The notes beneath the pieces are model-generated. The model saw only the letters and a list, made by a program, of their open reading frames with translations, made no database searches and was not told where the DNA came from. A program made the position numbers and the translations under genes. From Thermodesulfovibrionia bacterium (GTDB lineage: Bacteria; Nitrospirota; Thermodesulfovibrionia; UBA6902), in assembly GCA_947259735.1 (NCBI GenBank), contig CAMYNN010000009.1, positions 17,856 to 81,855 on the forward strand: DNA of 64,000 nt, written 5' to 3'. This document shows positions 34,272-52,060 of this stretch, in pieces. Each line of letters begins with the position of its first letter. Within the stretch, counting starts at the first letter, position 1.

Positions 34272-36125
34272 GTGAGAAAAAGGTTCCAATTCAAGAGCAT
34301 CGGAGCACGCCTCACCTTCTGGTTTTTCATTATGGCAATGCTTCCACTGATTATGGTCAATATCGCAATCTACATTCATATGGTGCATTCAATAAAGGTA
34401 TCAGTATTCAATAAGATCGAATCTATCAGGGATTTAAAGGTTCTTGAAGTCAACCACTGGCTCAAAGAAAGAATCAGCGATATCTATATTATTTCTGCCA
34501 GCGACGAGATACGCCTGCTGGAAATTATTCAAAGTGACAGAGAAGAAATCAGTCGACCCGATATGGCGATTATTTCCAGGGAGCAAACTCTTCTCAATAA
34601 CTACCTGAAAAATTATGATGACTTCCATGAAATCTCTATTGTAGACCCGCACACAAATAAAATCCTGGTCTCTACCGATAGAAAGAACGAAGGGAAAGTT
34701 CGTTTAACAGCGCCTCATGTTACAGAGTCCTTTCGGGGAGGGGAATTATTCATCGAGGATATTCATTATCCCGAGGGGCTCGATAAGCCCTCCATGGCTT
34801 TTTCCATTCCCATTTTCAGTCTGGCCAACCGTAGCACCCCTATCGGCTTACTCGTTGCCAGCATTAACCTTGAAAGCTCCCTTTATAAATTGTTGCTCAA
34901 TCGTACGGGAGTCGGAAAGACGGGTGAAACCCTCATTGTTAACAAAGACATCATTGCCCTGAACGAGTTGCGCTGGCACAAGGACGCCGTTCTTAAACTG
35001 AAAATAGAATCAGGACCTGCCCGAAAGGCCTCCCGCGGAAAAACGGGTATTGTTGAGACAGATGACTACAGGGGCGAAATGGTATTGGCCGCGTATACAC
35101 ATATCCCCATGACCGGATGGGGTTTTGTCGCAAAGCAGGACCTTAAAGAAGTTTACGCCCCCATCTATGGTCTCAGAAAATGGATGTTCGCCATTGTAAT
35201 CATGACTTTGTCTGGAGTGATCATTGTTGCTTTTCGTGTCTCAAAATCAATTTCCAGACCGATCAAGGTATTACATAAAGGCAGTGAAATAATAGGGAAT
35301 GGGAATCTGGATCATAGAGTTGGAACTGGCGCACATGACGAAATCGGTGAGTTGTCCAGAACATTCGATCATATGATAGAAAAGCTCAAGACTACCACCG
35401 CTTCATGGGATGAATTGAATAGAGAGATTGTCCAGCGCAAGCATCTTGAAAAAACGCTTCTCGAAATTGAGGAACATGAACGACGGCGTATTGGACACGA
35501 TCTTCATGATAATCTGGGACAACAACTTACGGGCATTTCTTTTAAGACCAAAGGACTGGAAAACATATTAAGGAAAAAATCAATTCCCGAGGCTGAAGAT
35601 GCAGAAAGAATTGCATACCTCATAGAGATGTCAAAAGCACAGCTCAAATCCCTGTCAATAGGTCTTGCTCCCATGTTTGGAAATGATGAGTACAGTCTGG
35701 CTACAGCCTTAGCAGAACTAGCGTCCAATTCCGAAAAACTATTTGGAATACATTGTGATCTGAAATGCAATAAATTTGTCAGATTATATTATAAATCCGC
35801 ACTGATACACCTCTACCGTATCGCTCAGGAGGCCATTACAAATGCTGCGCGGCACGCCAAACCCGACAAAATCGAAATTCGCCTCAGCAAGAAACATGAT
35901 GAAATTACAATGTCAATAAGAGATGATGGCCTGGGCTTTTCTACGCTGCACCGGACAAGCGGGATGGGTCTTGAAATTATGAAATATCGGGCAGCCATAA
36001 TCAATGCATCAATTGACATCCGTCCCGACAGCAAGAAAGGGACACGTGTAACCTGCGTTTTTTATGATAAACAGAAAAGTGAGACCAACATTACGGAGAA
36101 ACTTCATAATTCTTTATCCTGTTAG
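34272..36125 (+). CDS. Sensor histidine kinase, NarX/NarQ-like architecture (periplasmic Cache-like domain, HAMP, HisKA_3, HATPase)
   Basis: 617 aa. GTG start with RBS aggag. Two TM helices around a ~270-aa periplasmic domain. HAMP. HisKA_3 H-box RRIGHDLHDNLGQQLTGI. C-terminal ATPase (GMGLEIM). Confidence 0.85.
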   Translation: MRKRFQFKSIGARLTFWFFIMAMLPLIMVNIAIYIHMVHSIKVSVFNKIESIRDLKVLEVNHWLKERISDIYIISASDEIRLLEIIQSDREEISRPDMAIISREQTLLNNYLKNYDDFHEISIVDPHTNKILVSTDRKNEGKVRLTAPHVTESFRGGELFIEDIHYPEGLDKPSMAFSIPIFSLANRSTPIGLLVASINLESSLYKLLLNRTGVGKTGETLIVNKDIIALNELRWHKDAVLKLKIESGPARKASRGKTGIVETDDYRGEMVLAAYTHIPMTGWGFVAKQDLKEVYAPIYGLRKWMFAIVIMTLSGVIIVAFRVSKSISRPIKVLHKGSEIIGNGNLDHRVGTGAHDEIGELSRTFDHMIEKLKTTTASWDELNREIVQRKHLEKTLLEIEEHERRRIGHDLHDNLGQQLTGISFKTKGLENILRKKSIPEAEDAERIAYLIEMSKAQLKSLSIGLAPMFGNDEYSLATALAELASNSEKLFGIHCDLKCNKFVRLYYKSALIHLYRIAQEAITNAARHAKPDKIEIRLSKKHDEITMSIRDDGLGFSTLHRTSGMGLEIMKYRAAIINASIDIRPDSKKGTRVTCVFYDKQKSETNITEKLHNSLSC

Positions 36126-36270: not shown

Positions 36271-36327
36271 GTCCTATAATGAATACAATGAGAATAATAC
36301 GAAAGGGAATTGAGGGGAGAAAAAACC

Positions 36328-36996
36328 ATGAAAACGCAAAAGCCTGGAAATAAAACAAAAAAGAGTAAAGTCTTTATTGTTGACGACCATTGCATTTTAC
36401 GTGAAGGTCTTTCTCACCTTATTAACAGTGAAGAAGACCTTATAGTATGTGGAGAAGCAGACAATGTTTCCGATGCGCCACAGGCCATTGAAGATTCCAA
36501 ACCCGATATTGTAATAGTTGATATCGGTCTTGGAGATGGAAGTGGAATCAGACTCACAGAGAATCTCATGTATTCCCATCCCGCCATATCAGTACTGGTC
36601 CTGTCCATGCATGATGAATCGGAATATGCCGAACGTTGTCTTAAGTCAGGGGCACGGGGCTATATCATGAAACAGGAGTCATCCCGGAAATTGCTGTCAG
36701 CAATACGAAAAGTCCTGAACGGTGAAATATACGTGAGCGATAAATTAAACGTAACACTTTTGCATAAGTTTGTTAAAAACAAATTTGAAAGTTTCGATTC
36801 TTCCACAAAGCCCCTCAGCAACCGTGAACTGGAAGTGTATCAACTCCTCGGGCAGGGACTGAAAAAACACAAGATAGCAGAACGGTTAAACCTCAGTGTC
36901 AAAACCATTGAAACCTACATAGAACACATCAAGATCAAGCTGCAGTTAAAGGGCACACATGATGTCCTTATGCACGCGGTCAAGTCTATTTATTAA
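36328..36996 (+). CDS. NarL/FixJ-family response regulator (receiver + LuxR-type HTH)
   Basis: Start at ATG 36328 (RBS gagggga). VFIVDDHCILREGL...DIVIVDIGLGDGSG...LSMHDE. C-terminal LSNRELEVYQLLGQGLKKHKIAERLNLSVKTIETY. Confidence 0.9.
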   Translation: MKTQKPGNKTKKSKVFIVDDHCILREGLSHLINSEEDLIVCGEADNVSDAPQAIEDSKPDIVIVDIGLGDGSGIRLTENLMYSHPAISVLVLSMHDESEYAERCLKSGARGYIMKQESSRKLLSAIRKVLNGEIYVSDKLNVTLLHKFVKNKFESFDSSTKPLSNRELEVYQLLGQGLKKHKIAERLNLSVKTIETYIEHIKIKLQLKGTHDVLMHAVKSIY

Positions 36997-37338: not shown

Positions 37339-38172
37339 ATGTTCAATATCTTAAAGAAGGAGGAATTGTCAGAGCAGATAACGTTATTTGAGATCTCTGC
37401 AAAAGACATCGCGAATAAGGCAAAGCCGGGTAATTTTTTTATGCTCAGGACTCATGAGCAGGGAGAAAGGGTTCCTTTAACCATTGCTGATTTTGACAGG
37501 GACAGAGGGACCATAACAGCTGTGTTTCAGAAGGTCGGCAAGTCGACCAATCATCTGGGGTCCCTCAATGAAGGTGATTTTATACCCGATGTCACCGGTC
37601 CTCTCGGTAACCACTCCCACATAGATAATTTCGGCAGAGTTGTGTGCGTGGGAGGCGGCGTGGGGATCGCGCCTGTATACCCCATAGCAAAAGCGCTCAA
37701 AGAATCAGGCAATATCGTCACATCAATCATAGGTGCCCGTTCAAAATCAATTCTCTTTTGGGAAGAAAAGATGCGGAACGTATCTGACGAACTTATTATT
37801 ACCACCGATGACGGTTCCTACGGCACCAAGGCAACTGTAACCGCTCCCCTGGAAGATATTCTGAGCACCGAACAGGTCGACCTGGTCGTTGCCATCGGCC
37901 CTGCAGTCATGATGAAGTTCGTCTGCAAGACGACGGAAAAGTACAGAGTAAAAACGGTAGTCAGCCTCAATTCAATCATGATTGACGGGACGGGAATGTG
38001 CGGCGGCTGCAGGGTTGAAGTTGGAGGGGAGACAAAGTATACCTGTGTCGACGGCCCCGAATTTAATGGCCACGACGTGAACTTTGATCTGCTTATGAAC
38101 AGGCTGAAGGCGTATATTCCCCAGGAAAGTATAGCTTTGAACCGGGGAGGATCAACAGTGGAGGTCCAATAG
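37339..38172 (+). CDS. nfnA: NADH-dependent reduced ferredoxin:NADP+ oxidoreductase subunit A (NfnA / SudB; PyrK-like FAD + [2Fe-2S])
   Basis: 277 aa. FAD/NAD-binding fold (VCVGGGVGIAPVYPIAKAL). C-terminal Cys cluster (GTGMCGGCRVEVGGETKYTCVDGPEF). Followed by the gltD-like partner. Confidence 0.8.
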   Translation: MFNILKKEELSEQITLFEISAKDIANKAKPGNFFMLRTHEQGERVPLTIADFDRDRGTITAVFQKVGKSTNHLGSLNEGDFIPDVTGPLGNHSHIDNFGRVVCVGGGVGIAPVYPIAKALKESGNIVTSIIGARSKSILFWEEKMRNVSDELIITTDDGSYGTKATVTAPLEDILSTEQVDLVVAIGPAVMMKFVCKTTEKYRVKTVVSLNSIMIDGTGMCGGCRVEVGGETKYTCVDGPEFNGHDVNFDLLMNRLKAYIPQESIALNRGGSTVEVQ

Positions 38173-38174
38173 AT

Positions 38175-39605
38175 ATGGAATTAAAGACAGAGGAGAAAAG
38201 CACACATCATAGAGTGGAAATGAGGGAACAGGCACCTCTGGTACGGGCACGGAATTTCAAGGAGGTTCCTTTTGGATATACCCCTGATGAAGCAGTCGAG
38301 GAGGCATCAAGATGCAAGACATGCAAGAAAGGCGTCTGCAGGACAGGGTGCCCCGTTGAAGTAGATATTCCCGGATTTATAGAACTGATAAAAGAAAGAA
38401 AATTCCTCGATGCCTGCTACAGGGTAAAGGAGAAAAATGCCCTGCCGGCTGTCTGCGGAAGGGTATGCCCCCAGGAAAGACAGTGCGAATCACGCTGCCT
38501 GCTGGGCAAGACGGGAAAGCCCGTTGCGATTGGAAACCTGGAGAGATTTGTTGCTGATTATGAGGCAGAGAAGGGTAACATGAGAATTCCTGAAAGACCG
38601 GATCCCACAGGGAGAAAAGTCGCAGTCATTGGCTCCGGTCCGGGAGGCCTGACATGTGCAGTCGATCTTGCAATGGCCGGACATCAGGTCACCTTATATG
38701 AGGCATTTCATGAAGCGGGAGGGGTATTAGTTTACGGTATACCCGAGTTCAGGCTTCCCAAGGCAATTGTGAAAAGAGAGGTCGAGTATATAAAGAAGCT
38801 GGGTATCGAGCTTAAACTCAATGTGGTAATTGGAAAACTCCACACCATTGATGAATTACTGAATGGCAAGGGATATGATGCATGCTTTATTTGTACAGGT
38901 GCAGGACTGCCCATGTTTTTAGGAATACCGGGTGAAAACCTTAATGGTGTCTGCTCTGCAAATGAATATCTGACAAGGGCCAATCTTATGAAGGCCTATC
39001 TCTTTCCCGAATATGAAACACCCATAAAAGTAGGCACGAAAGTCGCTGTACTGGGTGGAGGCAATGTTGCCATGGATGCTGCACGGGTAGCATTAAGGCT
39101 TGGCGCGGAAAAGGTCTATCTTATTTACCGCCGCTCCGAGGACGAGATGCCTGCAAGAAAAGCGGAAGTACACCATGCACGCGAGGAAGGCATTGAGCTT
39201 TTACTCCTGACAAACCCGACAAGATACATTGATGACGGGAATGGGAATCTCTGCGGACTTGAATGCATCAGTATGAACCTCGGCGAACCGGATGAATCAG
39301 GCAGGAGAAGGCCCGTTCCGATCAAGGGCAGCGAGTTTCAAATCCCCGTAGATGTAGCAATCCCCGCATTAGGGGCCAAAGCAAATCCGCTTCTCACAAG
39401 AACAATGTCGGATTTAACCGTAAATAAAGGCGGCTATATTACCGCTGAAGACGGGACTGGCATGACATCGAAGAAGGGTGTATTCGCAGGTGGAGATATT
39501 GTCACAGGTGCTGCAACGGTTATCTCGGCTATGGGAGCAGGAAGGAGGACAGCGAATGCAATCAACGAGTATCTCAAATGGAATCACTGGGAGTTTAACG
39601 CATAG
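38175..39605 (+). CDS. nfnB: NfnB / SudA / GltD-like subunit (glutamate synthase small-chain family; 2x[4Fe-4S], FAD, NADPH)
   Basis: 476 aa. N-terminal Cys motifs (CKTCKKGVCRTGCPV, CGRVCPQERQCESRC). Two dinucleotide-binding motifs VAVIGSGPGGL and VAVLGGGNVAMD. Confidence 0.85.
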   Translation: MELKTEEKSTHHRVEMREQAPLVRARNFKEVPFGYTPDEAVEEASRCKTCKKGVCRTGCPVEVDIPGFIELIKERKFLDACYRVKEKNALPAVCGRVCPQERQCESRCLLGKTGKPVAIGNLERFVADYEAEKGNMRIPERPDPTGRKVAVIGSGPGGLTCAVDLAMAGHQVTLYEAFHEAGGVLVYGIPEFRLPKAIVKREVEYIKKLGIELKLNVVIGKLHTIDELLNGKGYDACFICTGAGLPMFLGIPGENLNGVCSANEYLTRANLMKAYLFPEYETPIKVGTKVAVLGGGNVAMDAARVALRLGAEKVYLIYRRSEDEMPARKAEVHHAREEGIELLLLTNPTRYIDDGNGNLCGLECISMNLGEPDESGRRRPVPIKGSEFQIPVDVAIPALGAKANPLLTRTMSDLTVNKGGYITAEDGTGMTSKKGVFAGGDIVTGAATVISAMGAGRRTANAINEYLKWNHWEFNA

Positions 39606-39611
39606 ATGTAT

Positions 39612-39638
39612 GTAAGGGCGGGGGCACCCCGCCCTTAC
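39612..39638 (+). other. Perfect GC-rich palindrome GTAAGGGCGGG-GGCAC-CCCGCCCTTAC between nfnB and the REC-nuoE-like gene (stem-loop; no T-tract)
   Basis: Read directly. 11-bp stem, 5-nt loop. Located 7 nt after the nfnB stop and 17 nt before the next start. Confidence 0.5.
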
Positions 39639-39654
39639 GAAGGGAGGGAAAACA

Positions 39655-40398
39655 ATGAGAGAAGATATAAACATTCTGATCGTAGACGATGAGCCTGTAG
39701 TTTTAAAGAGTGCCGCGAGGATCCTGAGTCCCGAAGGCTATGACGTAGAAGGAGTAATCAGCGGGAAAATGGCAGTACAAAATATAAAGCACAATAATTA
39801 CAGACTTGTCATCACAGACCTCAAGATGCCCGGAATAGACGGCATTACGCTCATACAATGGATCAGACAGTATCAGCCTGGTATAGGTATCGTGGTTATT
39901 ACCGGACACCTCTTCCCGGAAAACATCAAAGAGGAAGATAAACGCGGAATACTCAGCCATATCATGAAGCCCTTTACACCGGAAATACTGAAAGACGCAG
40001 TACATATGGCAGTAGAAATGACAATTGGAAATGATTCAGAGATTGCACCGGAACAATACTTCCAGCAGGCAAAGATCGAGGAACTGGACGGGATGATAAA
40101 TCGATACAAAAAAAATTCACGCCATGCAATAGGTGCGCTGCTGCAGGCCCAGGAAATATTAGGGTATCTTCCCCCAATAATACAGAAACATATCGCTCAT
40201 GGCCTGGATATGTATCCCTCTGAAATACGCCGTATTGTTTCCTTTCACTCCTGCTTCAGGACAGAACCGGAGGATATTCATGTATCGGGTTGCACAAATG
40301 GCATTGAAAAGGCATGGAACAGCGTGACCTGGATGACAGGGCATAATGCTTTGCATGCAGTCGGCGATTTTATTAAAGGGAGACAATTGGAGTCTTGA
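39655..40398 (+). CDS. Response-regulator receiver domain fused to an NuoE/HoxE-like (24-kDa subunit, N-terminal helical part) domain
   Basis: 247 aa. REC: ILIVDDEPVVL...RLVITDLKMPGIDG...IVVITGH. C-terminal region RHAIGALLQAQEILGYLPPIIQKHIAHGLDMYPSEIRRIVSFHSCF aligns with the NuoE N-terminal segment. The usual four-Cys 2Fe-2S motif is incomplete. A G7 homopolymer lies just downstream (40468-40475). Confidence 0.7.
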   Translation: MREDINILIVDDEPVVLKSAARILSPEGYDVEGVISGKMAVQNIKHNNYRLVITDLKMPGIDGITLIQWIRQYQPGIGIVVITGHLFPENIKEEDKRGILSHIMKPFTPEILKDAVHMAVEMTIGNDSEIAPEQYFQQAKIEELDGMINRYKKNSRHAIGALLQAQEILGYLPPIIQKHIAHGLDMYPSEIRRIVSFHSCFRTEPEDIHVSGCTNGIEKAWNSVTWMTGHNALHAVGDFIKGRQLES

Positions 40399-40501
40399 TG
40401 ATGGATATCTGCAGGGACGGCAACACACTCTTTCGGAACAAAACCTATGAATCCTTCAGCACCTCTATAGGGGGGTGGTGCTGCTGGAAAGGAGAATTCT
40501 T

Positions 40502-40885
40502 ATGGCCAGGCTAAGTATTGCAGACCTTCAGAAAGTGAGGGATAAAAACAAAGCATCATTTACTCTCAGAAAGGGCGATTACAAAGCGAAAATTACTGTC
40601 CATATGGGGACCTGCGGAATCGCGGCCGGTGCAAGGAATGTTATGACTGCCCTGATGAATGACATTGCCCTTTCCGGGAGAGAAGATATTGTAGTAAAAA
40701 CCTCAGGCTGCGGCGGGCTCTGCGCCCGTGAACCCATGACTGTTATTGAATTAGAGGATCAGACGCCTGTCATTTACGGCGACATGAATGAAGAGAAGGT
40801 CTCGGAAATATTCAGAGAACATATTATGGGCGGAACTCCTGTAGAAAAATATGCATTGGCTCTTGGAGGCACAGCTATATTCTGA
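40502..40885 (+). CDS. HndB-like small thioredoxin-fold [2Fe-2S] ferredoxin subunit (NuoE C-terminal-half-like)
   Basis: Start at ATG 40502 with perfect RBS aaggag. KITVHMGTCGIAAGA ... KTSGCGGLCAREPMT aligns with the Trx-like half of NuoE / Desulfovibrio HndB. Confidence 0.65.
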   Translation: MARLSIADLQKVRDKNKASFTLRKGDYKAKITVHMGTCGIAAGARNVMTALMNDIALSGREDIVVKTSGCGGLCAREPMTVIELEDQTPVIYGDMNEEKVSEIFREHIMGGTPVEKYALALGGTAIF

Positions 40886-40945
40886 CAGCCACTAACTACC
40901 TGTTGAACTTTGGACTTACAAATTATAAATATAAAGGAGGAATAC

Positions 40946-42823
40946 ATGGAAACTGCGGCTCGGACACATGCAATGCTTTGCGGAGGGACAGGCTGTATGG
41001 CAAGCGGCACGAACAAGGTCAAAGCCGCTCTCGAGGAGGAGTTTAAGAAGAAGGGAATTGACGATGAAGCAAAAGTGCACCTCTCAGGATGCAACGGGTT
41101 CTGCGCAAAGGGCCCTGTTATGGCTGTCTATCCCGATGAGACATTTTATCAGGATATAACGCCTGAAGATGTCCCCGGTCTTGTTGAGGAACATTTCCTG
41201 AAAGGGAGGCCCTATCAAAAATTGGCGTTCAAAGGGCATGACAAGAAAATTGCCATCCCCTCAATACATGATATTCCTTTCTTTAAACACCAGGTTCTGG
41301 TGGTGCTGAAAAACAAAGGGCTTATTGACCCTGAGAAGATCGAAGACTATATAATGATGGACGGCTATAAGGCGCTCGCAAGGGCACTCACGCAGATGAA
41401 GCCCGAAGAGATAGTAACGGTGGTTACCGACTCCGGACTAAGGGGAAGGGGCGGCGCAGGTTTCCCCACTGGCAAAAAATGGGAGCTCGGACGAAAAGTC
41501 GAATCGGAAGAGAAATATGTCATATGCAACGGTGATGAGGGTGACCCGGGCGCATTCATGGACAGATCGGTAATGGAATCAGACCCCCACGCAGTAATCG
41601 AAGGGATGATTCTCTGCGGCGTGGCGACTGAATCACATAAAGGCTACATCTATGTAAGGGCCGAATATCCCCTGGCAGTGAAACGACTTCAAATCGCCAT
41701 TGACCAGTGTTACGAGACAGGACTGCTCGGCAGTGACATATTCGGATCAGGTTTTGCTTTTGACCTTGAGATATACCAGGGCGCCGGCGCATTTGTTTGC
41801 GGTGAAGCTACGGCCCTGATGCGTTCTATTGAAGGCAAACGCGGGATGCCGAGGCCCAAACTGTTTCGTTCTGCAGTCAAGGGACTGTGGGACAATCCGA
41901 CTATACTAAACAATGTGGAGACCCTGGCGAATATTCCTCAAATCGTCTTAAACGGCGCTGGCTGGTACAGAAGCCTCGGCACCGATGAAAGCGCCGGGAC
42001 AAAGGTCTTTGCGCTTACAGGTGATATAAATAATGTGGGATTGGTTGAAGTCCCCATGGATACAACGCTCAGGAAGATTATCTTCGATATCGGCGGAGGG
42101 ATAGCAAAGAAGGGGAGAAAATTCAAGGCCGTACAGCTGGGAGGGCCTTCGGGAGGCTGCATCACCGAGGAGTTCCTGGATATCCCTGTTACCTATGAGG
42201 CCATCAAGAAGAGCGGCGCAATCGTAGGTTCCGGAGGTATGGTTGTAATGGATGACAGTACCTGCATGGTGAACACTGCAAAGTTCTTCCTTGACTTTAC
42301 TGCTGATGAATCCTGTGGTAAATGTGTCCCCTGCAGAATCGGAACAAAATTAATGTATGATCTGCTCGGCGACATCTGCGAAGGGAGGGGAAAAGCAGGG
42401 GATATAGAGATACTCGAAGACCTCTCGCAGGACATCATTGACTCATCACTCTGCGGCCTGGGCCAGTCAGCACCTACCCCGGTACTCTCAACGTTAAAAC
42501 ATTTCAGAAACGAATATGAAATGCACATAAATCACAAATGGTGTCCTACCGGTGTTTGTGGTGACCTCAGCACATTCTATATAGATGAAAAACTGTGCAA
42601 GGGATGCGGTGCCTGCGTGAGGGCATGTCCGGCAAATGCTGTAACCGGTGAAAAGAAAAAACCCCATGCGATAAATCAGGAAAATTGCGTACATTGCAGA
42701 ACATGCTGGGATTCATGCAAGTTCGGTTCTATAAAGATACTTCCTGCCGCGGCCCGTCATGCGGGAGAGGCTGAAATAAAGCATCTGTCGGGCATGCTGG
42801 AGGAAAGGGGAAAAATAATCTGA
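40946..42823 (+). CDS. NuoF/HndC/FdsB-like NAD(P)H-binding flavoprotein subunit (N-terminal Trx-like 2Fe-2S, FMN/NADH 51-kDa core, C-terminal 2x[4Fe-4S])
   Basis: Start at ATG 40946 (RBS aaggagg). LCGGTGCMASG...SGCNGFCAKGP. GLRGRGGAGFPTGKKW (FMN site). SLCGLGQ. C-terminal CKGCGACVRACP and CVHCRTCWDSC. Confidence 0.9.
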   Translation: METAARTHAMLCGGTGCMASGTNKVKAALEEEFKKKGIDDEAKVHLSGCNGFCAKGPVMAVYPDETFYQDITPEDVPGLVEEHFLKGRPYQKLAFKGHDKKIAIPSIHDIPFFKHQVLVVLKNKGLIDPEKIEDYIMMDGYKALARALTQMKPEEIVTVVTDSGLRGRGGAGFPTGKKWELGRKVESEEKYVICNGDEGDPGAFMDRSVMESDPHAVIEGMILCGVATESHKGYIYVRAEYPLAVKRLQIAIDQCYETGLLGSDIFGSGFAFDLEIYQGAGAFVCGEATALMRSIEGKRGMPRPKLFRSAVKGLWDNPTILNNVETLANIPQIVLNGAGWYRSLGTDESAGTKVFALTGDINNVGLVEVPMDTTLRKIIFDIGGGIAKKGRKFKAVQLGGPSGGCITEEFLDIPVTYEAIKKSGAIVGSGGMVVMDDSTCMVNTAKFFLDFTADESCGKCVPCRIGTKLMYDLLGDICEGRGKAGDIEILEDLSQDIIDSSLCGLGQSAPTPVLSTLKHFRNEYEMHINHKWCPTGVCGDLSTFYIDEKLCKGCGACVRACPANAVTGEKKKPHAINQENCVHCRTCWDSCKFGSIKILPAAARHAGEAEIKHLSGMLEERGKII

Positions 42824-42943
42824 TGCTGCCTAAGTATAAAACGGGAGATTTCAGTATCCATGATCAACTGTCCCATGTGAAGCGGTTAACCGCGGAACGA
42901 CGGAACGGTTACACAGTGCAACGTTTAAAAGCGGAGGTGTTCC

Positions 42944-45427
42944 ATGATAAAACTTACAATTAATGGCAAAAAGGTCAGGACTGAAAAAGGCAGTACCATC
43001 CTTGAAACCGCAATGAGCAACGGCATAAAAATACCCAATCTCTGCTATGATGGCAGAGTGGAGCCCCACGGGGGCTGCAGGTTGTGTATTGTGGAGATCG
43101 AGGGGTGGAGGAAACCCGAGGCATCATGTGCGACATTTGCAGCTGAAGGGATGACCGTGTGGACAAATACCCCTAAGGTGACAAAGATACGCCAGTCCGT
43201 ACTTGAGTTCATGTTAGTCCATCACCCCCTTGACTGTCCAGTTTGCGACAAAGCTGGTGAATGTGATGTCCAGGATCTAGCCCATCAGTATGGCAGCCCA
43301 CGATCACGTTTTATGAGGGAGAGGAAACACGCACTGCCTGATACCAAAGGCCCCCTCGTAGAATTAAATGCAAGCAGGTGTATCCTCTGCGGCAAATGCG
43401 TCCGTATCTGTGAAGAACATCAGGGCCGGGGAGCACTGGGGTTTATCGGGAGAGGCTTTCCCACTGTTGTTCAGCCTGCATTTGGTGAAGTTCTTGAATG
43501 TGATTACTGCGGACAATGCATTGATGCATGTCCTACAGGTGCCCTCATGAACAAATCCCATAAATTCGAGGCGCGGTCATGGTCCCTCGATGAGAAGGAT
43601 ACCATATGCCCCTTCTGCAGCTGCGGCTGTACTCTCACCCTTGGAATGATGGAAGGAAAGATACTGAGATCGAGAGGAAGGAAAGGCAGGGGAGTAAACG
43701 AGGGCAATCTATGTGGCAGAGGACGGTTTGGCGTTGATTATGTCTACAGCGAGAACCGTCTCAAGTCACCTGTAATTAATAAAGGTGGAGAGCTTGTCCC
43801 GGTCTCATGGGATGAGGCCCTTAATTATATCAGCGACAGACTCAAAAATATAATCAATGCCCACGGCCCGTCATCCATAGGCGCAATAGGGTCGCCCAGA
43901 TGTACAAATGAGGAGAATTATATTTTTCAGAAATTCATGAAGGAGACAATAGGTTCGAACAACATAGATTCCTCCGCTTCCTTCGGCTACGGCATTGCAG
44001 AGAGGGCCTGGAACAAGGCCTTCGGTCTCAAAGGTCACAGGATAGACCTGAAATCTCCTCTGGGTAAGGATGTAATCCTCGTCATAGAGTCTGACCTCAG
44101 CGTAACTCATCCTGTTTTCGGACTCAACATCCTTCAGGCACAGAAGGAGGGATCAAAGCTCATCGTTGCTGACAGCAGGGAGACAAAGTTGACAAGGCAC
44201 AGCACAGAATCTCCAAAATTAAAACAGGGGACAGGGGTTGCGTTCCTGAACGGAATAATGAAGGTCCTGCTGGACAGGGGTCTTTATGAGACGGAACATG
44301 TCTCAAATGTAAAAGGTTTTTCAGCACTTGAGGAAACGTTAAAAGAGTATTCCCAGGATCGAGTCTACGCGATTACAGGGGTTCCCGGGGATGAGCTTAT
44401 TGCCATTGCAGAGACTTTGGTGAATGCCAAAACCAGAATGCTCACTCTTTCCATCGGGATTTCTGAAAATACAAAGGGACTGGATACTATGTTGGCCGCA
44501 GCAAATTTAATTCACCTTCTGGGTGAGAGTCCCGACGCCCTTCAGGTGCCTGCAGAATACTCCAATACCTTTGGCCTTTATCAAATGGGTGTGCGCCCCG
44601 ATGCCGGTCCGGCTTATCAACCCTTCGGGGGTACCGGTAAAGATGTGAGGGAAATGCTCTATGAGCCTTACTCTCTCAAGGCGCTTTATATAATGGGAGC
44701 AGACCCTGTTGTCACCTTCCCCAACAACTCAGATATTATCACCACATTGAAATCACTCTACCTGCTCATCGTTCAGGATATCGCTTTGACGGAGACAGCA
44801 AAATTTGCTCACGTTATACTCCCTGCATCCAGCTGGTCGGAAAAAGACGGCACCTATACCAATACCGAAGGAATTACCCAGAAGATCCACAAGGTCATTG
44901 ATCCTGCAGGCCAGTCGCTTCCTGATTGGCAGATCCTTAAAAAACTAGCAGCGACTATGGGAAAGGACATCGATATAAAAGAGAGAAAAGACATAGTACA
45001 GGAGATAAACTCATTGCTTGATGAACAAAGCGAATTGCCGCCTCTCACCCGCGCATTTAACCCGGTTCATTATACCCCGGGCGAAAAAACGGATAAAGAG
45101 TATCCATTGAACATGGTCGCAAGGGATGTACTGCAGCACGCCGGCAGCATGTCAACGAGGTCAAAATCGCTGAACCTGGTCTCATCTGAGGCGCTCCTTG
45201 AGATAAACTGGAAAGATGCGAAAAGGTACGGCATTTCAGATAACGGTCATGTAAAAGTGACTTCGAGACGGGGTACGGTATTTCTCAAGGCAGCCGTCTC
45301 CGATGACGTTCCTGATGGAAGTGTCTATGTACCGACACACTTTCCGCACAGCGGAGTAAGTACCCTTATGAGTCCATCGGGAAATGGGGGAATTTCTACT
45401 GATGCGGTCAGGATTGAAACAGCATAA
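42944..45427 (+). CDS. fdhA: NAD-dependent formate dehydrogenase catalytic subunit FdhA/FdsA-like (2Fe-2S + 4Fe-4S + Mo/W-bisPGD), cysteine-type
   Basis: 827 aa. N-terminal 2Fe-2S (CYDGRVEPHGGCRLC). His/Cys cluster (HHPLDCPVCDKAGEC). 4Fe-4S CILCGKC / CDYCGQCIDACP. MopB start ICPFCSCGC. Mo-ligand position reads SPRC (Cys, not TGA). Clustered with NuoE/NuoF-like subunits. Confidence 0.88.
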   Translation: MIKLTINGKKVRTEKGSTILETAMSNGIKIPNLCYDGRVEPHGGCRLCIVEIEGWRKPEASCATFAAEGMTVWTNTPKVTKIRQSVLEFMLVHHPLDCPVCDKAGECDVQDLAHQYGSPRSRFMRERKHALPDTKGPLVELNASRCILCGKCVRICEEHQGRGALGFIGRGFPTVVQPAFGEVLECDYCGQCIDACPTGALMNKSHKFEARSWSLDEKDTICPFCSCGCTLTLGMMEGKILRSRGRKGRGVNEGNLCGRGRFGVDYVYSENRLKSPVINKGGELVPVSWDEALNYISDRLKNIINAHGPSSIGAIGSPRCTNEENYIFQKFMKETIGSNNIDSSASFGYGIAERAWNKAFGLKGHRIDLKSPLGKDVILVIESDLSVTHPVFGLNILQAQKEGSKLIVADSRETKLTRHSTESPKLKQGTGVAFLNGIMKVLLDRGLYETEHVSNVKGFSALEETLKEYSQDRVYAITGVPGDELIAIAETLVNAKTRMLTLSIGISENTKGLDTMLAAANLIHLLGESPDALQVPAEYSNTFGLYQMGVRPDAGPAYQPFGGTGKDVREMLYEPYSLKALYIMGADPVVTFPNNSDIITTLKSLYLLIVQDIALTETAKFAHVILPASSWSEKDGTYTNTEGITQKIHKVIDPAGQSLPDWQILKKLAATMGKDIDIKERKDIVQEINSLLDEQSELPPLTRAFNPVHYTPGEKTDKEYPLNMVARDVLQHAGSMSTRSKSLNLVSSEALLEINWKDAKRYGISDNGHVKVTSRRGTVFLKAAVSDDVPDGSVYVPTHFPHSGVSTLMSPSGNGGISTDAVRIETA

Positions 45428-45559: not shown

Positions 45560-45967
45560 CTACTTATATGTGTCCTTCAATAATCCTTCAGTTTTGTCGG
45601 CGGCCTTTTTGCCTTCATCCACAATATCACTGACAGTCCTCATATCTTCTTCTTTCTCTGTTAAAGCACGTGCCGCCTCTGTTCCTTTTTCCTTGAGGGA
45701 ACCAGCAGTTTCAAGCGCCTCATCCTTGGCCCCCAAGGCTTTATCTGTCATCGCACTTGCTGTTTCTGAAGCGCTGTCTTTCATGGCGCCAGCAGTTTCA
45801 ACTGCCGCGTCTTTAGCGTCCAGGGCTTTGTCTCTCATCGCACTTGCTGTTTCTGATGCCTTGCTTTTAACCTCTGCTGCCTTTTCACTGGCTTTCTGAC
45901 AACCTATCGTCATGGTAAAAGAAAAAGCCAGGATAACAGATACTAATATTGTCCAAATATACTTCAT
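45560..45967 (-). CDS. Repetitive lipoprotein (LEA/apolipoprotein-like 22-aa repeats), unknown function
   Basis: 135 aa. Lipobox TMTIGC. Repeats SETASAM[RT]DKAL[DG]AKD[AE]A[VL]ETAG x2 plus related segments. Confidence 0.6.
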   Translation of the reverse strand: MKYIWTILVSVILAFSFTMTIGCQKASEKAAEVKSKASETASAMRDKALDAKDAAVETAGAMKDSASETASAMTDKALGAKDEALETAGSLKEKGTEAARALTEKEEDMRTVSDIVDEGKKAADKTEGLLKDTYK

Positions 45968-46327
45968 CTCGCGTCTCCTCTCTGTCCCCTCACCTTTTGT
46001 GAAAAGATTTGTGATTTAATAGAGATATTTATTAATCTCCGGATTTACTCTTAAGCAGAAAAAATTTAATATAAATTAGAGACATTTAATATGATATATA
46101 TCATATTACAAGAAATTGTTGGCACGTTCCGGTATGTACGGATACAGCGATTTATTCAGCCCGCCGAGAAACAATAACACTTTTACTCATATTTTCCAAT
46201 GACCTTCGTCCGGGTAATTTCGGCTTTAAGCATCTGTCCTTCACCTTCATGCCTTTCTGTGCGATTCAAAGCAAAAGAGCATATACATGATGTATAATTG
46301 AATGATTTTATAGGAGACTGCAGTAGT

Positions 46328-47680
46328 ATGGCAAAATCAATCAAAGCAACAATTATGGTTGTAGATGACGAGGAAAACATTCTCGATACACTGTCCGGTA
46401 TCCTGGAAGATGAAGGACATCACGTGATCACGGCATCATCAGGTGAAAGTGCCCTTGTTAAATATGCTGAATCTTCTCCTGACCTTGTCCTGCTTGATGT
46501 ATGGATGCCAGGGATGGACGGCATTGATACCCTCAAGAGCCTGAAAAAGAAAAACAAAGATGTATGCGTAATAATGATCTCCGGACACAGCAATATAGAC
46601 ACTGCGGTACATGCGATCAAGCTCGGCGCCTATGACTTTCTGGAAAAACCCCTTTCCCTTGATAAGGTCCTGATCCTTATTACAAGGGCCCTTGAGAAAC
46701 GGGTTCTTGAAAAAGAAAATATTGCATTAAAAAGCAGTATATCCGAGCAGTGGGAGATTATCGGAGAAAACCACAAAATGGTTGAACTCAGGGACAGGAT
46801 TGCAAAGGCTGCTGTTTCCCACGGCAGAGTTCTGATTATTGGTGAAAGTGGTTCGGGCAAAGAACTTGTTGCACGGGCATTGCATGATGGAAGTGACCGG
46901 AAGCACAACAGTTTTATAGAGGTAAACTGTGCCGCCATCCCCCATGAGTTAATTGAGAGTGAACTCTTCGGTCATGAAAAAGGCTCTTTTACAGGTGCCT
47001 TCGAAAGCAAGAGAGGAAAGTTTGAGCTCGCCCATGAAGGGACCCTGTTCCTGGACGAAATTGGTGATATGTCCCTCATCACACAGGCGAAGGTGCTGAG
47101 AATCATCGAGACACAGGAGTTTCAAAGGGTCGGTGGGAGCAAAAAAATAAAAGTTGATGTAAGGATTATTGCGGCCACAAACAAAGAGCTGGAAGAAGAG
47201 ATCCAGAAAGGAAATTTCAGGGAAGATCTGTTTTTCAGGCTGAATGTCATTCCTATACATGTTGCTCCTCTTAGAGAAAGGAAAAGTGATATTCCTCTTC
47301 TCGTCGAATACTTTCTGAAAAACTACGGCCGGCAATACGGCCAGAAGAAAAAGCGGGTCAGCAAATCTACGCTCCGAATCCTCATGGAATATGACTGGCC
47401 GGGCAATGTGCGTGAGTTAAAAAACACAATCGAACGCTTCGTGATTATGAACTCCTCTGAAGTCATTGACGTGAAAGAAATCCAGCCTGTCAAAGGAATG
47501 AAATTGGACTACACGTCCTTAAAGACGTTGCGTGAGGCACGGGAAAACTTCGAGAAAGAGTTCATCCTGAAAAAGCTTCAGGAAAACAACTGGAATGTTT
47601 CAAAGACAGCTGAGGAAATGGAAATTGAGAGAAGCAACCTCCACAGAAAGATCAAGTCCCTGGGAATAGAAACTCCTTAG
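46328..47680 (+). CDS. Sigma-54-dependent response regulator (NtrC family: REC + AAA+ + Fis-type HTH)
   Basis: Start at ATG 46328. IMVVDDEENILDT...LVLLDVWMPGMDG. GESGSGKE Walker A. GAFTGA-like GHEKGSFTGAF. C-terminal HTH VSKTAEEMEIERSNLHRKIK. Confidence 0.92.
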   Translation: MAKSIKATIMVVDDEENILDTLSGILEDEGHHVITASSGESALVKYAESSPDLVLLDVWMPGMDGIDTLKSLKKKNKDVCVIMISGHSNIDTAVHAIKLGAYDFLEKPLSLDKVLILITRALEKRVLEKENIALKSSISEQWEIIGENHKMVELRDRIAKAAVSHGRVLIIGESGSGKELVARALHDGSDRKHNSFIEVNCAAIPHELIESELFGHEKGSFTGAFESKRGKFELAHEGTLFLDEIGDMSLITQAKVLRIIETQEFQRVGGSKKIKVDVRIIAATNKELEEEIQKGNFREDLFFRLNVIPIHVAPLRERKSDIPLLVEYFLKNYGRQYGQKKKRVSKSTLRILMEYDWPGNVRELKNTIERFVIMNSSEVIDVKEIQPVKGMKLDYTSLKTLREARENFEKEFILKKLQENNWNVSKTAEEMEIERSNLHRKIKSLGIETP

Positions 47681-47705: not shown

Positions 47706-48356
47706 TCATTCGTCAATATCAGGCAGACCCGGAGTTCGTTGCTGCTCCTGGTCTGAGGAGCGCCTGACCCTGGTCGGTCTTCTGCGGGGAGGGGTTGCTC
47801 TCCTTCGTCGAGGCTTGGGTCTCTCCCTCGCTACAGCCTTGCGTTGTGTTGCTGCGCGCGCCTTCGCTCTGGTCGGCGGTTTAATCCCTTTATCGTCCCT
47901 CAACTTTACTTCTATATCATCGCCATCTCTGGAAAGCACAACCTTGTTTTCAAGTATTTCTGAAATCTTGTATCCGGAAAGGGAATCATTCAGTTTATAC
48001 ACTTTTGTCGTCTTCGTTTCAGGGTCCTCAAGAATAGCCGTTTTCATGTCATTAAGAATGATTGTTCCGAACAGCTTCGGCGGATTTTTCAGCGGAGCTT
48101 TTTCAGTTTTTTTCTTTTCCTTTACCGATGCTGATCTTGATGGCCTGAAAAGGTCCAGTTTCGATATATTATCAAAAGTGCCGGCACTGACAACTTTATC
48201 TTTCCTGCTTACAACATTCTCAGAATTTTGTACTTCATTAACATTTGCTTCCTTCGGGAGATCCGCGGAAGAGGACAGGACACTGTACAGTTTGATACCC
48301 AATACGCAAATTATTGTTATAAGAATAAGATTTACTAAGAAATAATTACGTATCAC
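47706..48356 (-). CDS. GspC/PilP-like type II secretion protein (TM anchor + HR-like domain, no PDZ; Arg/Pro-rich C-terminal tail), possibly GspN-equivalent
   Basis: 216 aa. Last gene of the gsp operon. N-terminal TM (LVNLILITIICVLGI). PilP/HR-like segment LFGTIILNDMKTAILEDPETKTTKVYKLNDSLSGYKISEILENKVVLSRDGDDIEVKL. Tail RAKARAATQRKAVARERPKPRRRRATPPRRRPTRVRR. Confidence 0.55.
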   Translation of the reverse strand: MIRNYFLVNLILITIICVLGIKLYSVLSSSADLPKEANVNEVQNSENVVSRKDKVVSAGTFDNISKLDLFRPSRSASVKEKKKTEKAPLKNPPKLFGTIILNDMKTAILEDPETKTTKVYKLNDSLSGYKISEILENKVVLSRDGDDIEVKLRDDKGIKPPTRAKARAATQRKAVARERPKPRRRRATPPRRRPTRVRRSSDQEQQRTPGLPDIDE

Positions 48357-48948
48357 TTTTCGCCTCTTTCTTATCCGTCTTTTTTTCCCCGGGTTTCTTT
48401 ATAAAGCCGGTAACGACCAGGGTCGTATAAATGTCCTCTGGCTTGCTTATATTTGTCACTCTCACCTTTATTTCGGACACTGTAAGCAGAAAAGGCGATT
48501 TGCGAAGCTTTACGAGCAGATCTTTTAATTCTCTCGTGGTGGCTGTAAACCCAATTTCAACAGGAATTCCAAGGTATGATTCGGCATCTACAAGGTTCAG
48601 AGCCCGCTCCAGTTTCACAACCACGTTCAAAGACGATGCAGTGTCCTTGAGAAATTTCTGCAGCGCCGCAGCGGCTACGGGCGGGGTGTTGCCCCGGAGA
48701 AGGGTCCTTTCCTGTATTTCCAGCTCCTGACTGACGACCCTGTACTTTTCTTCTATGTATTTCTGTTCCGATATCTTGTTTATCTGCCGCTGCAACATGA
48801 AAGCTTTTGCATCTGAATATTCCTTAATACTCTTTTTTGTATCACTGTACCAGGAAAAAAGGTAAAATACCATGATCAGTACTACTGCAATCCCACCGAT
48901 GATGAGGAATTTTTTTTCCCTTTCGTTAATCTTGATCGGAAGATTCAT
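48346..48948 (-). CDS. gspM: Type II secretion protein GspM (PilO-like)
   Basis: 200 aa. Single N-terminal TM, coiled coil, PilO-like C-terminus. Position after gspL. Confidence 0.7.
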   Translation of the reverse strand: MNLPIKINEREKKFLIIGGIAVVLIMVFYLFSWYSDTKKSIKEYSDAKAFMLQRQINKISEQKYIEEKYRVVSQELEIQERTLLRGNTPPVAAAALQKFLKDTASSLNVVVKLERALNLVDAESYLGIPVEIGFTATTRELKDLLVKLRKSPFLLTVSEIKVRVTNISKPEDIYTTLVVTGFIKKPGEKKTDKKEAKSDT

Positions 48949-50456
48949 TGAACCCCGCTTTCCCCGCCCGATGGGATGACGATTCTCGCACTCAGTTTAA
49001 ACTGCTCCTTATCTCTCGTTTTCTTTATAGGGCCCACAAATTCTACCTCTTCAAACAGAGGTGAATCCTCCAGGAGCGGGATAAGTGACGATGAGGAATC
49101 TGCATACCCGTTAATAATCAGATCACCCCCTGATTTTTCTTTGTCACTCAGATCACCCCCCTCATAGTTAAGGTTGGTTACCCATGAATCTTTGGGCATT
49201 ATCCCGGCAAGCTCAGCAAGGATTTCAAGGGTCATTTCATTGTCCCTCACATCATGAAGAAACTTACTTTCCTCCTTGAGTGAATTGATATCAGAAAGAA
49301 GCTTTTCAAGGGTTTTCACTTTCGGTTCATTCGCCGCAAGCGTCTCTTCCATTTTCTCTAAATATTTCTTCTGTTTTATTGTCTCTGTAGCAAAGATTCC
49401 CACGATCATTAACAGTATCAGTACAACAAAAACTTTCGCTGCCCAGGGAGCAAATTTTCTTATTTCATAATCCGTCTGATGGGGCAGCAAATTAATTCTG
49501 TACGTCCCTATTCCCAGTCCGCCGAAACAAGCTCCGATTGACGAAGACAGGCCGTTCATTTCCACGTCCTTCAGTTTACCCGAAAATCTTTCGATACGAT
49601 CCACGTGAATAACACCTTCCGAAATCTTTCCATTCAACTCATCGGTTATATTTGATGTAAAAGAAGTGTCTCCGGCAAGTATTAATTTATTAAACCGTTC
49701 CAGTGAAAGTGCTGACTGTACTTCGGCTATATGCCGAGAGATGTCATCGATCGGAATTTCAGGCTCCCCGTTCATATCATAAAGAAAAGATCGCAAACTG
49801 ATACAGATACCGTCTCTCGTAACAGCCACACTGGCGTAGGTCTTATCAATATACAGAGAAATATTCGCCTCACCCGGTTTCCCCAGCACGTCTGATCTTC
49901 TGACAATTCCGATTATGTCCTGCCATCCACCCGATGACAATCCGCCCAGTTCCAGGGAGTTTAAAACAGCAAAAGAGGATATGGTAATCGCATCGGGCTC
50001 GATGGAAAGTTTCTCAAGATATTCTTTTACAAAATTGAGTTTCTCGTTTTGCACTGCCACAAACACAACATAGTTCTTCCCATCCCTTTCATCTATCACG
50101 AGGAAATCAAAGGCAACATCATCTATCTCAAGGGGAATATGGCGCTCTATCTCAAACTTCATCAGGTTTGCGAGGGCACCCTTCCCCTTGCCTTTCATGG
50201 AGGGTATGTCGATAAATTTTGTAATCGCCCACCGATCAGGAACGCTCACAAATACTTTCTCTATGTTCAGATTTTGCTGGCCGATATAATCCCGGACTTC
50301 ATCAGACGCAGTTTCATCGTACGTCAGAGGAAATGTCGATGAAGACAGGAGAGCAATTCCTGAAAAGCTGTTTTCAAGGTACGTAATAACAACGGAGTCT
50401 TCCTTAAACTCCATCCCGAGGTACGTTCCAAATATCTTATCCAATAAAGTTGTCAT
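48945..50456 (-). CDS. gspL: Type II secretion protein GspL (cytoplasmic actin-like domain + TM + periplasmic domain; PilM/PilN-like)
   Basis: 503 aa. TM helix VFVVLILLMIVGIFA about two-thirds of the way in. Operon position between gspK and gspM. Confidence 0.7.
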   Translation of the reverse strand: MTTLLDKIFGTYLGMEFKEDSVVITYLENSFSGIALLSSSTFPLTYDETASDEVRDYIGQQNLNIEKVFVSVPDRWAITKFIDIPSMKGKGKGALANLMKFEIERHIPLEIDDVAFDFLVIDERDGKNYVVFVAVQNEKLNFVKEYLEKLSIEPDAITISSFAVLNSLELGGLSSGGWQDIIGIVRRSDVLGKPGEANISLYIDKTYASVAVTRDGICISLRSFLYDMNGEPEIPIDDISRHIAEVQSALSLERFNKLILAGDTSFTSNITDELNGKISEGVIHVDRIERFSGKLKDVEMNGLSSSIGACFGGLGIGTYRINLLPHQTDYEIRKFAPWAAKVFVVLILLMIVGIFATETIKQKKYLEKMEETLAANEPKVKTLEKLLSDINSLKEESKFLHDVRDNEMTLEILAELAGIMPKDSWVTNLNYEGGDLSDKEKSGGDLIINGYADSSSSLIPLLEDSPLFEEVEFVGPIKKTRDKEQFKLSARIVIPSGGESGVQ

Positions 50457-51396: not shown

Positions 51397-51418
51397 ACTA
51401 CCCTGTGAATTGCACCGC

Positions 51419-52060
51419 CTAGCCGATCTCATCTTCATCCTCTTCTTCTGCGTCAGATGCCATAGGTATATAAATAACAAACGGATCAAAATAGGAAATC
51501 TTAACCCTGACCGCTCGCGGCAGTTCCTCTCCCAGCTCCCAGGAATCCTTCCATTCATCGTCATCCTGCGAGAAATATTCAAATTGCATCTCTTCTATAG
51601 AGGAGTCAACCACTTCTTCGTCTCCGGTGATATGATCCAGCACTTCCTTATCAGGAAGCAGTCCTTCTTTCAGTAGCAATGCGCCCTCTTGATGGGAATA
51701 TCGCAGCCATTTAAATCCTCCGGAAAAAGACTCCGTCAGGGTCGTAACAAAGAATATAGAATCAGCTTCGCCCTGAAATAATACAACTTCTTCATCTTCA
51801 TCAATCTCCAGTGAATAGGGGAAAACGGATTTTATCTGCTGTGAAAAAAGTCCCGATAAAACCCGAAACTTCTGCGTCCACTCCGTTTCACTCTCACCCC
51901 TGTCCCATGCTTTCATACCAAGTCGAAAACCATTCCCGATAATGAGTACAACCAGCGTCAGAATTGTAATGGAAATCACGAGCTCAAGAAGGGTAAACCC
52001 TCCATGACAACGATAAGGAAGGAACGGGGGAGTCTTTTTTCTGCATTTACCCTTATTCAT
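51419..52060 (-). CDS. gspJ: Type II secretion minor pseudopilin GspJ
   Basis: 213 aa. Prepilin motif GGFTLLELVISITIL. Acidic C-terminus. Confidence 0.75.
   Translation of the reverse strand: MNKGKCRKKTPPFLPYRCHGGFTLLELVISITILTLVVLIIGNGFRLGMKAWDRGESETEWTQKFRVLSGLFSQQIKSVFPYSLEIDEDEEVVLFQGEADSIFFVTTLTESFSGGFKWLRYSHQEGALLLKEGLLPDKEVLDHITGDEEVVDSSIEEMQFEYFSQDDDEWKDSWELGEELPRAVRVKISYFDPFVIYIPMASDAEEEDEDEIG

Follow-up and report, generated by a model that had tools for sequence, protein, structure and literature searches.

Bfu enzymes such as HydABC are central to anaerobic energy metabolism, and the mechanism by which they bifurcate electrons is still debated. In the solved structures of this family the N-terminal domain of the NuoE-type subunit, BfuC, is part of a stable platform on the NuoF-type subunit BfuB, to which it docks, and the C-terminal domain of BfuC, which bears the [2Fe-2S] cluster C1, is a mobile gate, by which low-potential electrons are passed on from the flavin mononucleotide (FMN) site towards clusters B3/B4 and ferredoxin (PMC11829005). 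C1 also belongs to the minimal bifurcating 'flavobicluster', B1-FMN-C1 (PMC11829005), and deletion of the NuoE-type cluster in StnABC abolished bifurcation in both directions and left NADPH:viologen activity intact (PMC10482914). The regulation described for such gene clusters in one study (PMC11406978) relies on distinct sensory subunits, which are hydrogenase-like and equipped with PAS or histidine-kinase domains. Here we describe a Bfu-type gene cluster at positions 39655-45427 of a 64-kilobase stretch of DNA (contig CAMYNN010000009.1, from a Thermodesulfovibrionia bacterium), which was analysed at its full length and is called the window below. The first gene of the cluster encodes a 247-amino-acid protein in which a CheY-like receiver is fused to the N-terminal half of a NuoE-type subunit, and from which the C1 domain is missing.

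The characterised NuoE/BfuC subunits share with this protein the helical N-terminal domain (the N-terminal half of Pfam PF01257) and a gene position beside a HydB-type NuoF that has an N-terminal thioredoxin (Trx) domain and a C-terminal 2x[4Fe-4S] domain. Unlike the window protein, none of them has an N-terminal CheY-like receiver, and the window's clade differs from them further by the loss of the C-terminal Trx domain, which in them bears the C1 [2Fe-2S] cluster. The four-gene layout, with a NuoE-like, a small (~14-kDa) Trx-fold, a NuoF-like and a large Fe-S subunit, is that of the [FeFe]-hydrogenase HndABCD of Solidesulfovibrio fructosivorans and of the Thermoanaerobacter-type hyd operons with HydD, the second gene being likened to HndB by size, fold and position; the small Hnd subunit is thought to be without a redox centre (PMC10084766). 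The large subunit of HndABCD, however, is an [FeFe]-hydrogenase, whereas that of the window is NuoG-like with a predicted dead molybdopterin site, and the NuoE-like subunit of the window is fused to a receiver. The best structural match of the window's NuoF (777 bits) comes from NiFe-HydABCSL of Acetomicrobium mobile (PDB 7t2r), whose BfuA is likewise a non-catalytic NuoG-like scaffold fed by extra subunits (PMC11829005); the window differs in having no adjacent hydrogenase S/L genes, the sole candidate extra subunits being NfnAB, which are adjacent in the window's clade only. The formate dehydrogenase FdsABG (R. capsulatus, 6tg9; C. necator beta subunit, 6vw7) has the same NuoE/NuoF/molybdopterin-subunit architecture, but the large subunit of the window lacks the catalytic Cys-His and Arg, and its NuoF is nearer to HydB (777 against 337-401 bits). 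The B3/B4 and B5 domains, which are present in the window's NuoF, are missing from non-bifurcating homologues, for example 6TGA (PMC11829005).

The features of the cluster are as follows:

39655..40398, plus strand: receiver-NuoE (N-terminal domain), 247 amino acids, BfuC-like subunit without the [2Fe-2S] domain (Pfam and alignments)
39673..40002, plus strand: CheY-like receiver domain, residues 7-116 (Pfam E 1.1e-24; five residues checked)
40090..40299, plus strand: NuoE/BfuC N-terminal helical domain, residues 146-215 (PF01257 positions 3-73 of 145)
40300..40395, plus strand: short-clade-specific tail in place of the Trx-like [2Fe-2S] domain (alignment of 28 clusters)
40470..40475, plus strand: G6 run in the intergenic spacer, irrelevant to the structure of the open reading frames (ORFs)
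40502..40885, plus strand: HndB/HydD-like Trx-fold subunit, 127 amino acids (motif VH.GTCG.A.G ... GC.G.C..EP)
40946..42823, plus strand: NuoF/HydB-type BfuB (Pfam; full-length alignment to 7t2r_B and 7q4v_B)
42944..45427, plus strand: predicted NuoG/FdhA-like BfuA scaffold, 827 amino acids (Pfam, NCBIfam, active-site alignment)

Long and short forms of the receiver-NuoE protein

At the N-terminus of the 247-residue protein, Pfam Response_reg (PF00072) matches residues 7-116 with 87.2 bits against a cutoff of 30.2, and the receiver quintet is complete (D11, D12, D55, T83 and K105), in agreement with the initial annotation of this DNA, which had described a complete CheY-like receiver. The same annotation had held that the NuoE region comprises the helical N-terminal half only; this is confirmed, and the boundary is set, by the alignment to PF01257, in which residues 146-215 cover profile positions 3-73 of 145 (E 3.8e-10). 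Coverage ends at position 73, so the C-terminal Trx-like [2Fe-2S] domain with its CX4C...CX3C signature is missing.

A search of ~5.8 billion proteins, in which matches with both domains were sorted by this signature and clustered at 90% identity, yielded two length classes: 28 short clusters (241-280 amino acids, without CX4C...CX3C) and 33 long ones (285-310 amino acids, with it). The fusion is thus found in related genomes as well, a question raised with the initial annotation. The short clusters stem from many samples, and the C1 [2Fe-2S] domain is missing from the window protein and the whole short clade and present in the long clade. Full-length receiver-NuoE matches number about 16 among 1.84 billion cluster representatives, and the databases label receiver-NuoE proteins either 'NAD(P)H-dependent oxidoreductase subunit E' or 'CheY-like chemotaxis protein'. 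Our literature search for a receiver-NuoE/BfuC fusion found no paper describing one, and the terms 'response regulator' and 'CheY' do not occur in the text of a survey of the Bfu family (PMC9304861). The short C1-less form is a further derived variant of this fusion; what goes beyond this anatomy, we infer.

Alignment of the two forms shows that the short one lacks seven residues ('IRVCLGT'), which in the Trx-like domain account for the first strand and the first Cys. The short forms end instead in a strongly conserved 32-residue tail, GIEKAWNSVTWMTG..ALHAV.EFIK.RQLES, which contains no conserved Cys; all 28 short clusters have W221 and F239, and nearly all have G216 and V236. In the short clade, this tail has replaced the C-terminal [2Fe-2S] (C1) domain; in its ancestral state the first gene encodes a receiver joined to an entire NuoE, and the window copy is a derived short form. 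AlphaFold2, run on the short form with an input alignment of 28 sequences, predicted the receiver well and gave the N-terminal NuoE domain as four helices (helices at residues 138-197) with a predicted local distance difference test score (pLDDT) of 73-90. A tandem pair of short-form units, each a receiver plus the N-terminal NuoE half, occurs in a single ORF of the metagenomic protein P0136 (501 amino acids).

The phospho-site behaves differently in the two classes. All 33 long-form clusters have the quintet intact, and six more distant receiver-NuoE fusions keep its last three positions (D55, T83 and K105). At least one of the five residues is lost in 18 of the 28 short-form clusters, the fold and K105 being kept; D12 is replaced by N, S or H in 18/28 and D55 by E, G, A or T in 6/28. 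The doubt, voiced initially, whether orthologues keep the conserved Asp is therefore justified for six short clusters and dispelled for the long ones (0/33). A quick neighbour-joining tree (a single run, not bootstrapped) groups the short forms together as the sister clade of the long Nitrospirota forms. The lineages at the base of the short clade, the window's among them, keep the full quintet, and within this clade substitution of D55 affects no fewer than three lineages. With NuoF as the yardstick, the divergence rate of receiver-NuoE in the short clade is ~1.7 times that in the long clade. Loss of residues with retention of the fold, as in the 18 short clusters, is likewise found in aspartate-less and pseudo-receivers (PMC4395418); the window copy differs from these in having all five residues, and the decay in its clade is lineage-specific and coincides with the loss of the partner domain. 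The phospho-site thus stays fully intact as long as the protein has its gate domain and erodes after that domain has been lost, and we infer that a phospho-switch may be linked to the mobile [2Fe-2S] (C1) domain. Within the window, the closest paralogue of the fused receiver is the NtrC-type receiver at 46298 (29% identity, E 2e-13), and the NarL-type receiver is 23% identical (E 6e-6).

The short form could in principle result from a sequencing or assembly frameshift in, or recent pseudogenization of, a conventional full-length NuoE, and the initial annotation had pointed to a G7 run at 40468-40475 as its possible cause. The homopolymer in the spacer, and the frame disruptions in nuoF and nuoG of the related metagenome-assembled genome (MAG) L088, speak for such an explanation. 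The run, however, is a G6 at 40470-40475, and it is intergenic; because it lies 72 nucleotides downstream of the tandem stop TGATGA (40396-40401), its length cannot join the two ORFs. The same G6 is present in the independent assembly L087 and absent from L088 and L001. Near-identical 247-residue proteins are moreover found in three distinct NCBI assemblies, and all 28 clusters have a common length and the conserved tail. A profile of 19 long-form C-terminal domains, compared with three-frame translations of 12 short loci, detected no remnant of the lost domain in any frame beyond a shared FYS.F..KP motif (all E > 0.002). We therefore give the frameshift or pseudogene explanation almost no credence; as far as the sequence tells, the truncation is genuine and old. 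An apparent frame +2 relic near 40370-40440 ('RFY*RET..VLMMD', compared with long-form 'KFSLET..PVMMID') was rejected as a chance resemblance, since the profile search found nothing there. As for L088 (MAG GCA_945787795.1), its nuoF has an internal deletion of ~23 residues with a change of frame at 12851-12853, and its NuoG-like gene is frameshifted near residue 660 (about 15389); these disruptions point either to assembly errors or to a cluster that is decaying in that lineage.

Subunits encoded beside the receiver-NuoE gene

The 127-residue gene at 40502-40885, which is preceded by a Shine-Dalgarno sequence (GGAAAGGAGA) 8 nucleotides 5' of its ATG, had initially been taken to supply the missing half of a split NuoE. 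Its orthologues show otherwise. In L004, a full-length receiver-NuoE (285 amino acids, four Cys) is followed by a 127-residue gene whose product is 52% identical to that of the window from end to end (E 1e-50), and across L004 and 18 further Nitrospirota genome loci such orthologues follow a full-length receiver-NuoE with 43-64% identity (E 1e-32 to 1e-56). The NuoE proteins of all 19 long-form loci are full length, with CX4C...CX3C intact. The order receiver-NuoE, HndB-like, NuoF, NuoG-like is shared by L004 and L007-L024 (long) and by 11 short loci, and the position of the 127-residue gene between the NuoE-like and NuoF-like genes is kept in 30 loci. In BLASTP against full-length receiver-NuoE, the protein does not significantly match the C-terminal domain of NuoE (E 0.44), and the C-terminal half of PF01257 scores 23 bits, slightly below the cutoff of 24.8. 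Its best matches among solved structures are the N-terminal Trx domains of BfuB (9n5u_B, 8oh5_B and 9bov_B; E 6e-13 to 2e-11), so that it resembles this part of NuoF/BfuB and not the C-terminal domain of NuoE. These comparisons identify the 127-residue gene as an orthologous, separate subunit and refute an evolutionary split. Its motif VH.GTCG.A.G ... GC.G.C..EP (three Cys plus Glu/His) is invariant and identical in the short and long clades.

The NuoF-like ORF, which most likely starts at the ATG at 40946, aligns over its full length to HydB-type subunits, with 777 bits to 7t2r_B, 757 to 7q4v_B and 715 to 8a6t_B (681-777 bits when 7p5h_B is included), against 337-401 bits to formate dehydrogenase beta subunits and 355 to complex I NuoF. 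A four-Cys Trx domain forms its N-terminus and a 2x[4Fe-4S] ferredoxin domain its C-terminus, and it has sites for FMN/NADH and for a [4Fe-4S] cluster. The enzyme is thus flavin-based, as first annotated, with a NuoF of the HydB/BfuB type that matches the bifurcating NiFe-HydB 7t2r_B from end to end.

The 827-residue protein had been annotated as FdhA, and the cluster as a formate dehydrogenase. Indeed, its best solved-structure match is R. capsulatus FdsA (6tg9_A, E 9e-120), and the Pfam domains Molybdopterin, Molydop_binding and Molybdop_Fe4S4 are all found, the molybdopterin fold being retained, together with the N-terminal Fe-S domains Fer2_4, NADH-G_4Fe-4S_3 and Fer4_Nqo3. In the alignment to 6tg9_A, however, 'ARVCHS' corresponds to 'ASFGYG' and 'NPLRGQNNVQG' to 'VPAE-YSNTFG', so that Gly stands at the catalytic Cys/Sec position, Tyr at that of His, and Glu or a gap at that of Arg. 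The same substitutions are present in L001 and L004, the motif DS[SA]A.FGY is conserved in all three proteins, and no conserved alternative ligand was found in them near the lost Cys/Sec-His site. The score with the Fdh-alpha model (TIGR01591) is 459.5, which is 207 bits short of the cutoff of 666.25, whereas the NuoG model (TIGR01973) covers the protein over model positions 1-606 of 606 with 461 bits, 9 short of the cutoff of 470.05. A genuine NAD-linked, possibly bifurcating formate dehydrogenase is therefore highly improbable, and the protein is predicted to be a NuoG-like BfuA scaffold with a catalytically dead molybdopterin site; some Bfu enzymes are known to use a NuoG-like BfuA fed by additional subunits (PMC11829005). 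This corrects an annotation trap: the gene product is no formate dehydrogenase, and the presence of this 'FdhA' in these genomes gives no ground for deducing formate metabolism. Taken together, the domain and profile matches identify 39655-45427 as a Bfu (HydABC/Hnd-like) core with BfuC-like, HndB/HydD-like, BfuB and BfuA subunits, whose relatives all lie in Nitrospirota genomes; the order and families of the NuoE-like, HndB-like and NuoF-like genes are those given at first.

Function of the short-form complex

We consider it reasonably probable that the whole is best explained, on the present comparisons, by a C1-less receiver-NuoE Bfu core, a phospho-switch tied to C1 and a non-canonical complex in the window. 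In the long form, phosphorylation of the receiver would control the mobile C1 domain and hence the gate of low-potential electrons; with the loss of C1 the phospho-site would become dispensable and decay in most short-form lineages. The window copy, whose quintet is intact, would act through its N-terminal NuoE domain plus receiver as a structural and regulatory anchor on NuoF, and the window complex would be a plain NAD(H)-linked electron-transfer module alongside the putatively co-transcribed NfnAB. Because C1 is missing and its deletion abolishes bifurcation in StnABC, the short complex, by analogy, probably no longer bifurcates by the canonical C1 route. The engineered StnABC deltaA1 (PMC10482914) resembles the short clade in that the NuoE-like subunit is without its [2Fe-2S] cluster; it keeps the protein domain, however, and loses bifurcation, whereas the natural short form deletes the domain, adds a conserved tail and persists clade-wide. 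NfnAB is of the complete bifurcating transhydrogenase type and may cooperate with the window complex. The short clade represents a natural, evolutionarily stable deletion of the gate, on which it can be tested whether the C1 cluster is truly indispensable, and a receiver inside the gate subunit would allow electron bifurcation to be controlled directly, at the post-translational level. The broader proposal that receiver-BfuC fusions constitute a Bfu class in which a two-component signal gates C1, with the window clade as a natural C1-less derivative (a core that either lacks bifurcation or relies on an HndB-like bypass), is speculative, and we think it rather doubtful.

Several observations weigh against a C1-less core with a phospho-switch tied to C1. 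AlphaFold2 gave the tail no confident structure (pLDDT 41-61). The ratio of nonsynonymous to synonymous differences (pN/pS) is 0.4-0.5 in every segment and uninformative, synonymous sites being near saturation (pS 0.44-0.59), so that the amino-acid alignment was used instead to show that the tail is conserved. The short clade retains all eight Cys of the NuoF B3/B4 domain and the four-Cys N-terminal Trx domain; this retention is unexpected if ferredoxin reduction via C1 is gone. The C1 domain was lost in a single event (one clade), so that at the deepest level its correlation with the decay of the phospho-site has n=1. Finally, the long clade has no adjacent NfnAB as an electron feed for the NuoG-like scaffold.

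The retained B3/B4 domain would be sensible only if low-potential electrons still arrive, and the HndB-like protein offers a possible route: if it carried a [2Fe-2S] cluster in the short clade, it could take the role of C1 and bridge FMN and B3/B4, and the complex would still bifurcate. This is a weakened form of the split-NuoE idea, in which the HndB-like protein was not born by gene splitting. Its gene is always beside the short gene, its Trx-like ferredoxin fold has three invariant Cys along with invariant His and Glu, and in the N-terminal domain of S. ovata StnB the same motif has been modelled as [2Fe-2S] (PMC11829005). On the other hand, the ligand motif is identical in all long-form loci, which have C1, and did not change upon the loss of C1; the only high-resolution structure with the 3-Cys-plus-Glu motif, that of C. 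saccharolyticus NfnB, holds Zn and not Fe-S (PMC11829005); and the nearest structural relatives are N-terminal domains of BfuB, not C-terminal domains of BfuC. We regard such a replacement of C1 in trans as unlikely. Little probability is also given to a free-standing role, in which the short protein would be response-regulator-like, for example a kinase-titrating decoy or a competitor at the NuoE site on NuoF. Its faster evolution than that of its neighbours (mean pairwise identity 58%, compared with 86% for NuoF), the degenerate phospho-site of many members and the tandem arrangement in P0136 would fit a protein of this kind. Yet the N-terminal NuoE domain, the NuoF-docking part in the solved Bfu structures (PMC11829005), and the tail stay conserved, and the gene order and spacing of the operon are strictly kept. 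A search confined to the 64-kilobase window, and thus not covering the rest of the genome, furthermore found no second NuoE-type domain and returned only weak Trx-fold matches to the HndB-like protein and the NuoF N-terminus (E 3e-4 and 5e-4).

Genomic surroundings in the two clades

The cluster is the distal part of six genes on the plus strand at 37339-45427, in the order NfnA-like, NfnB-like, 247-residue ORF, 127-residue ORF, NuoF-like and 827-residue ORF. The features upstream of it are as follows:

34272..36125, plus strand: NarX-like sensor histidine kinase, dCache-HAMP-HisKA_3-HATPase, 617 amino acids (matches the domain-annotated 617-residue gene of the near-identical locus L087)
36310..36996, plus strand: NarL/GerE-type response regulator (receiver plus GerE in L001, L087 and L088)
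37339..38172, plus strand: NfnA/NfnS-like FAD/NAD-binding subunit (NCBIfam PRK06222, 404 bits against a cutoff of 220)
38175..39605, plus strand: NfnB/NfnL (GltD/GltA-type) subunit (NCBIfam TIGR01316, 544 bits against a cutoff of 472)
39612..39638, plus strand: G+C hairpin of 12 bp in the nfnB/receiver-nuoE spacer (folding free energy -24.9 kcal/mol, z -3.8)

The small (FAD/[2Fe-2S]) and large (GltD-type) subunits of the NfnAB (NfnSL) transhydrogenase pair both exceed curated cutoffs and lie directly upstream, which bears out the adjacent NfnAB of the initial annotation. The NarX-like kinase is gene 1 of a conserved eight-gene block and keeps its upstream position in L001 and L088; the NarL/GerE-type regulators of L001, L087 and L088 are 86-92% identical to that of the window, and this regulator is probably the cognate transcription factor of the kinase. 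NarX-like kinase, NarL-type regulator, NfnA and NfnB precede the four genes in the window, L001-L003 and L087-L092, but not in L093, so NfnAB and the NarX/NarL pair are joined upstream in the short clade. The assembly closest to the window locus is GCA_947258725.1, and all related loci with a named organism belong to Nitrospirota. The flanks of the block differ between genomes, and because the related blocks in L001 and L088 have unrelated flanks, the eight genes appear to move as a unit. In the window, type II secretion/type IV pilus genes lie on both sides of the block (28350-33774 and 47706-51582); as read from the near-identical L087, these are GspD/E/F-like upstream and T2SSC, T2SSM and PilM/N-like downstream.

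The hairpin at 39612-39638 lies in the 49-nucleotide spacer between nfnB and receiver-nuoE, with no T-run after the stem. Its translation, 'GAGLKPAPAKGG', appears as a spurious N-terminal extension of several short-clade homologues, from which it follows that the hairpin has been conserved, perhaps as an element for processing or stability or as one of the repetitive extragenic palindromic (REP) type. Downstream of the cluster, the minus strand at 45560-45967 contains a 135-residue ORF with a lipoprotein-like N-terminus (…TIGC) and Ala/Glu/Lys-rich repeats ('ETASAM.DKAL.AKD.A.ETAG'). A sigma-54-dependent response regulator follows just downstream at 46298-47680, on the same strand as the bfu genes; regulators of the sigma-54 type are found with the long-form clusters as well.

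Upstream of the long-form cluster, genes other than NfnAB are found (receiver-GcvH-like, HAMP-HisKA kinase, DRTGG, HATPase, PHP, receiver and sigma-54 regulator). In at least 15 of the 19 long-clade loci a 255-residue receiver plus GcvH-like protein is encoded directly upstream of receiver-NuoE (L004, 9113-9883; L008, 7211-7978; also L007, L009-L010, L012-L021 and L024). Its receiver is canonical, and its GcvH-like domain is without a conserved lipoyl-lysine; the gene is absent from the window's clade, where NfnAB takes that position. A larger set of signalling genes, comprising a HAMP-HisKA kinase, two DRTGG proteins, HATPase_c_2, PHP, HATPase_c, a lone receiver and a sigma-54 regulator, occupies 2976-8860 of L004 and recurs in ~10 long-clade loci. 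In L008 (162-3415, minus strand) and 5-6 other long-clade loci, a divergent nuo operon with nuoA, nuoB, nuoD and a canonical nuoE of 154 amino acids lies 5-8 kilobases upstream of the receiver-NuoE cluster, and the genomes with this operon therefore have an ordinary, separate NuoE of their own besides receiver-NuoE.

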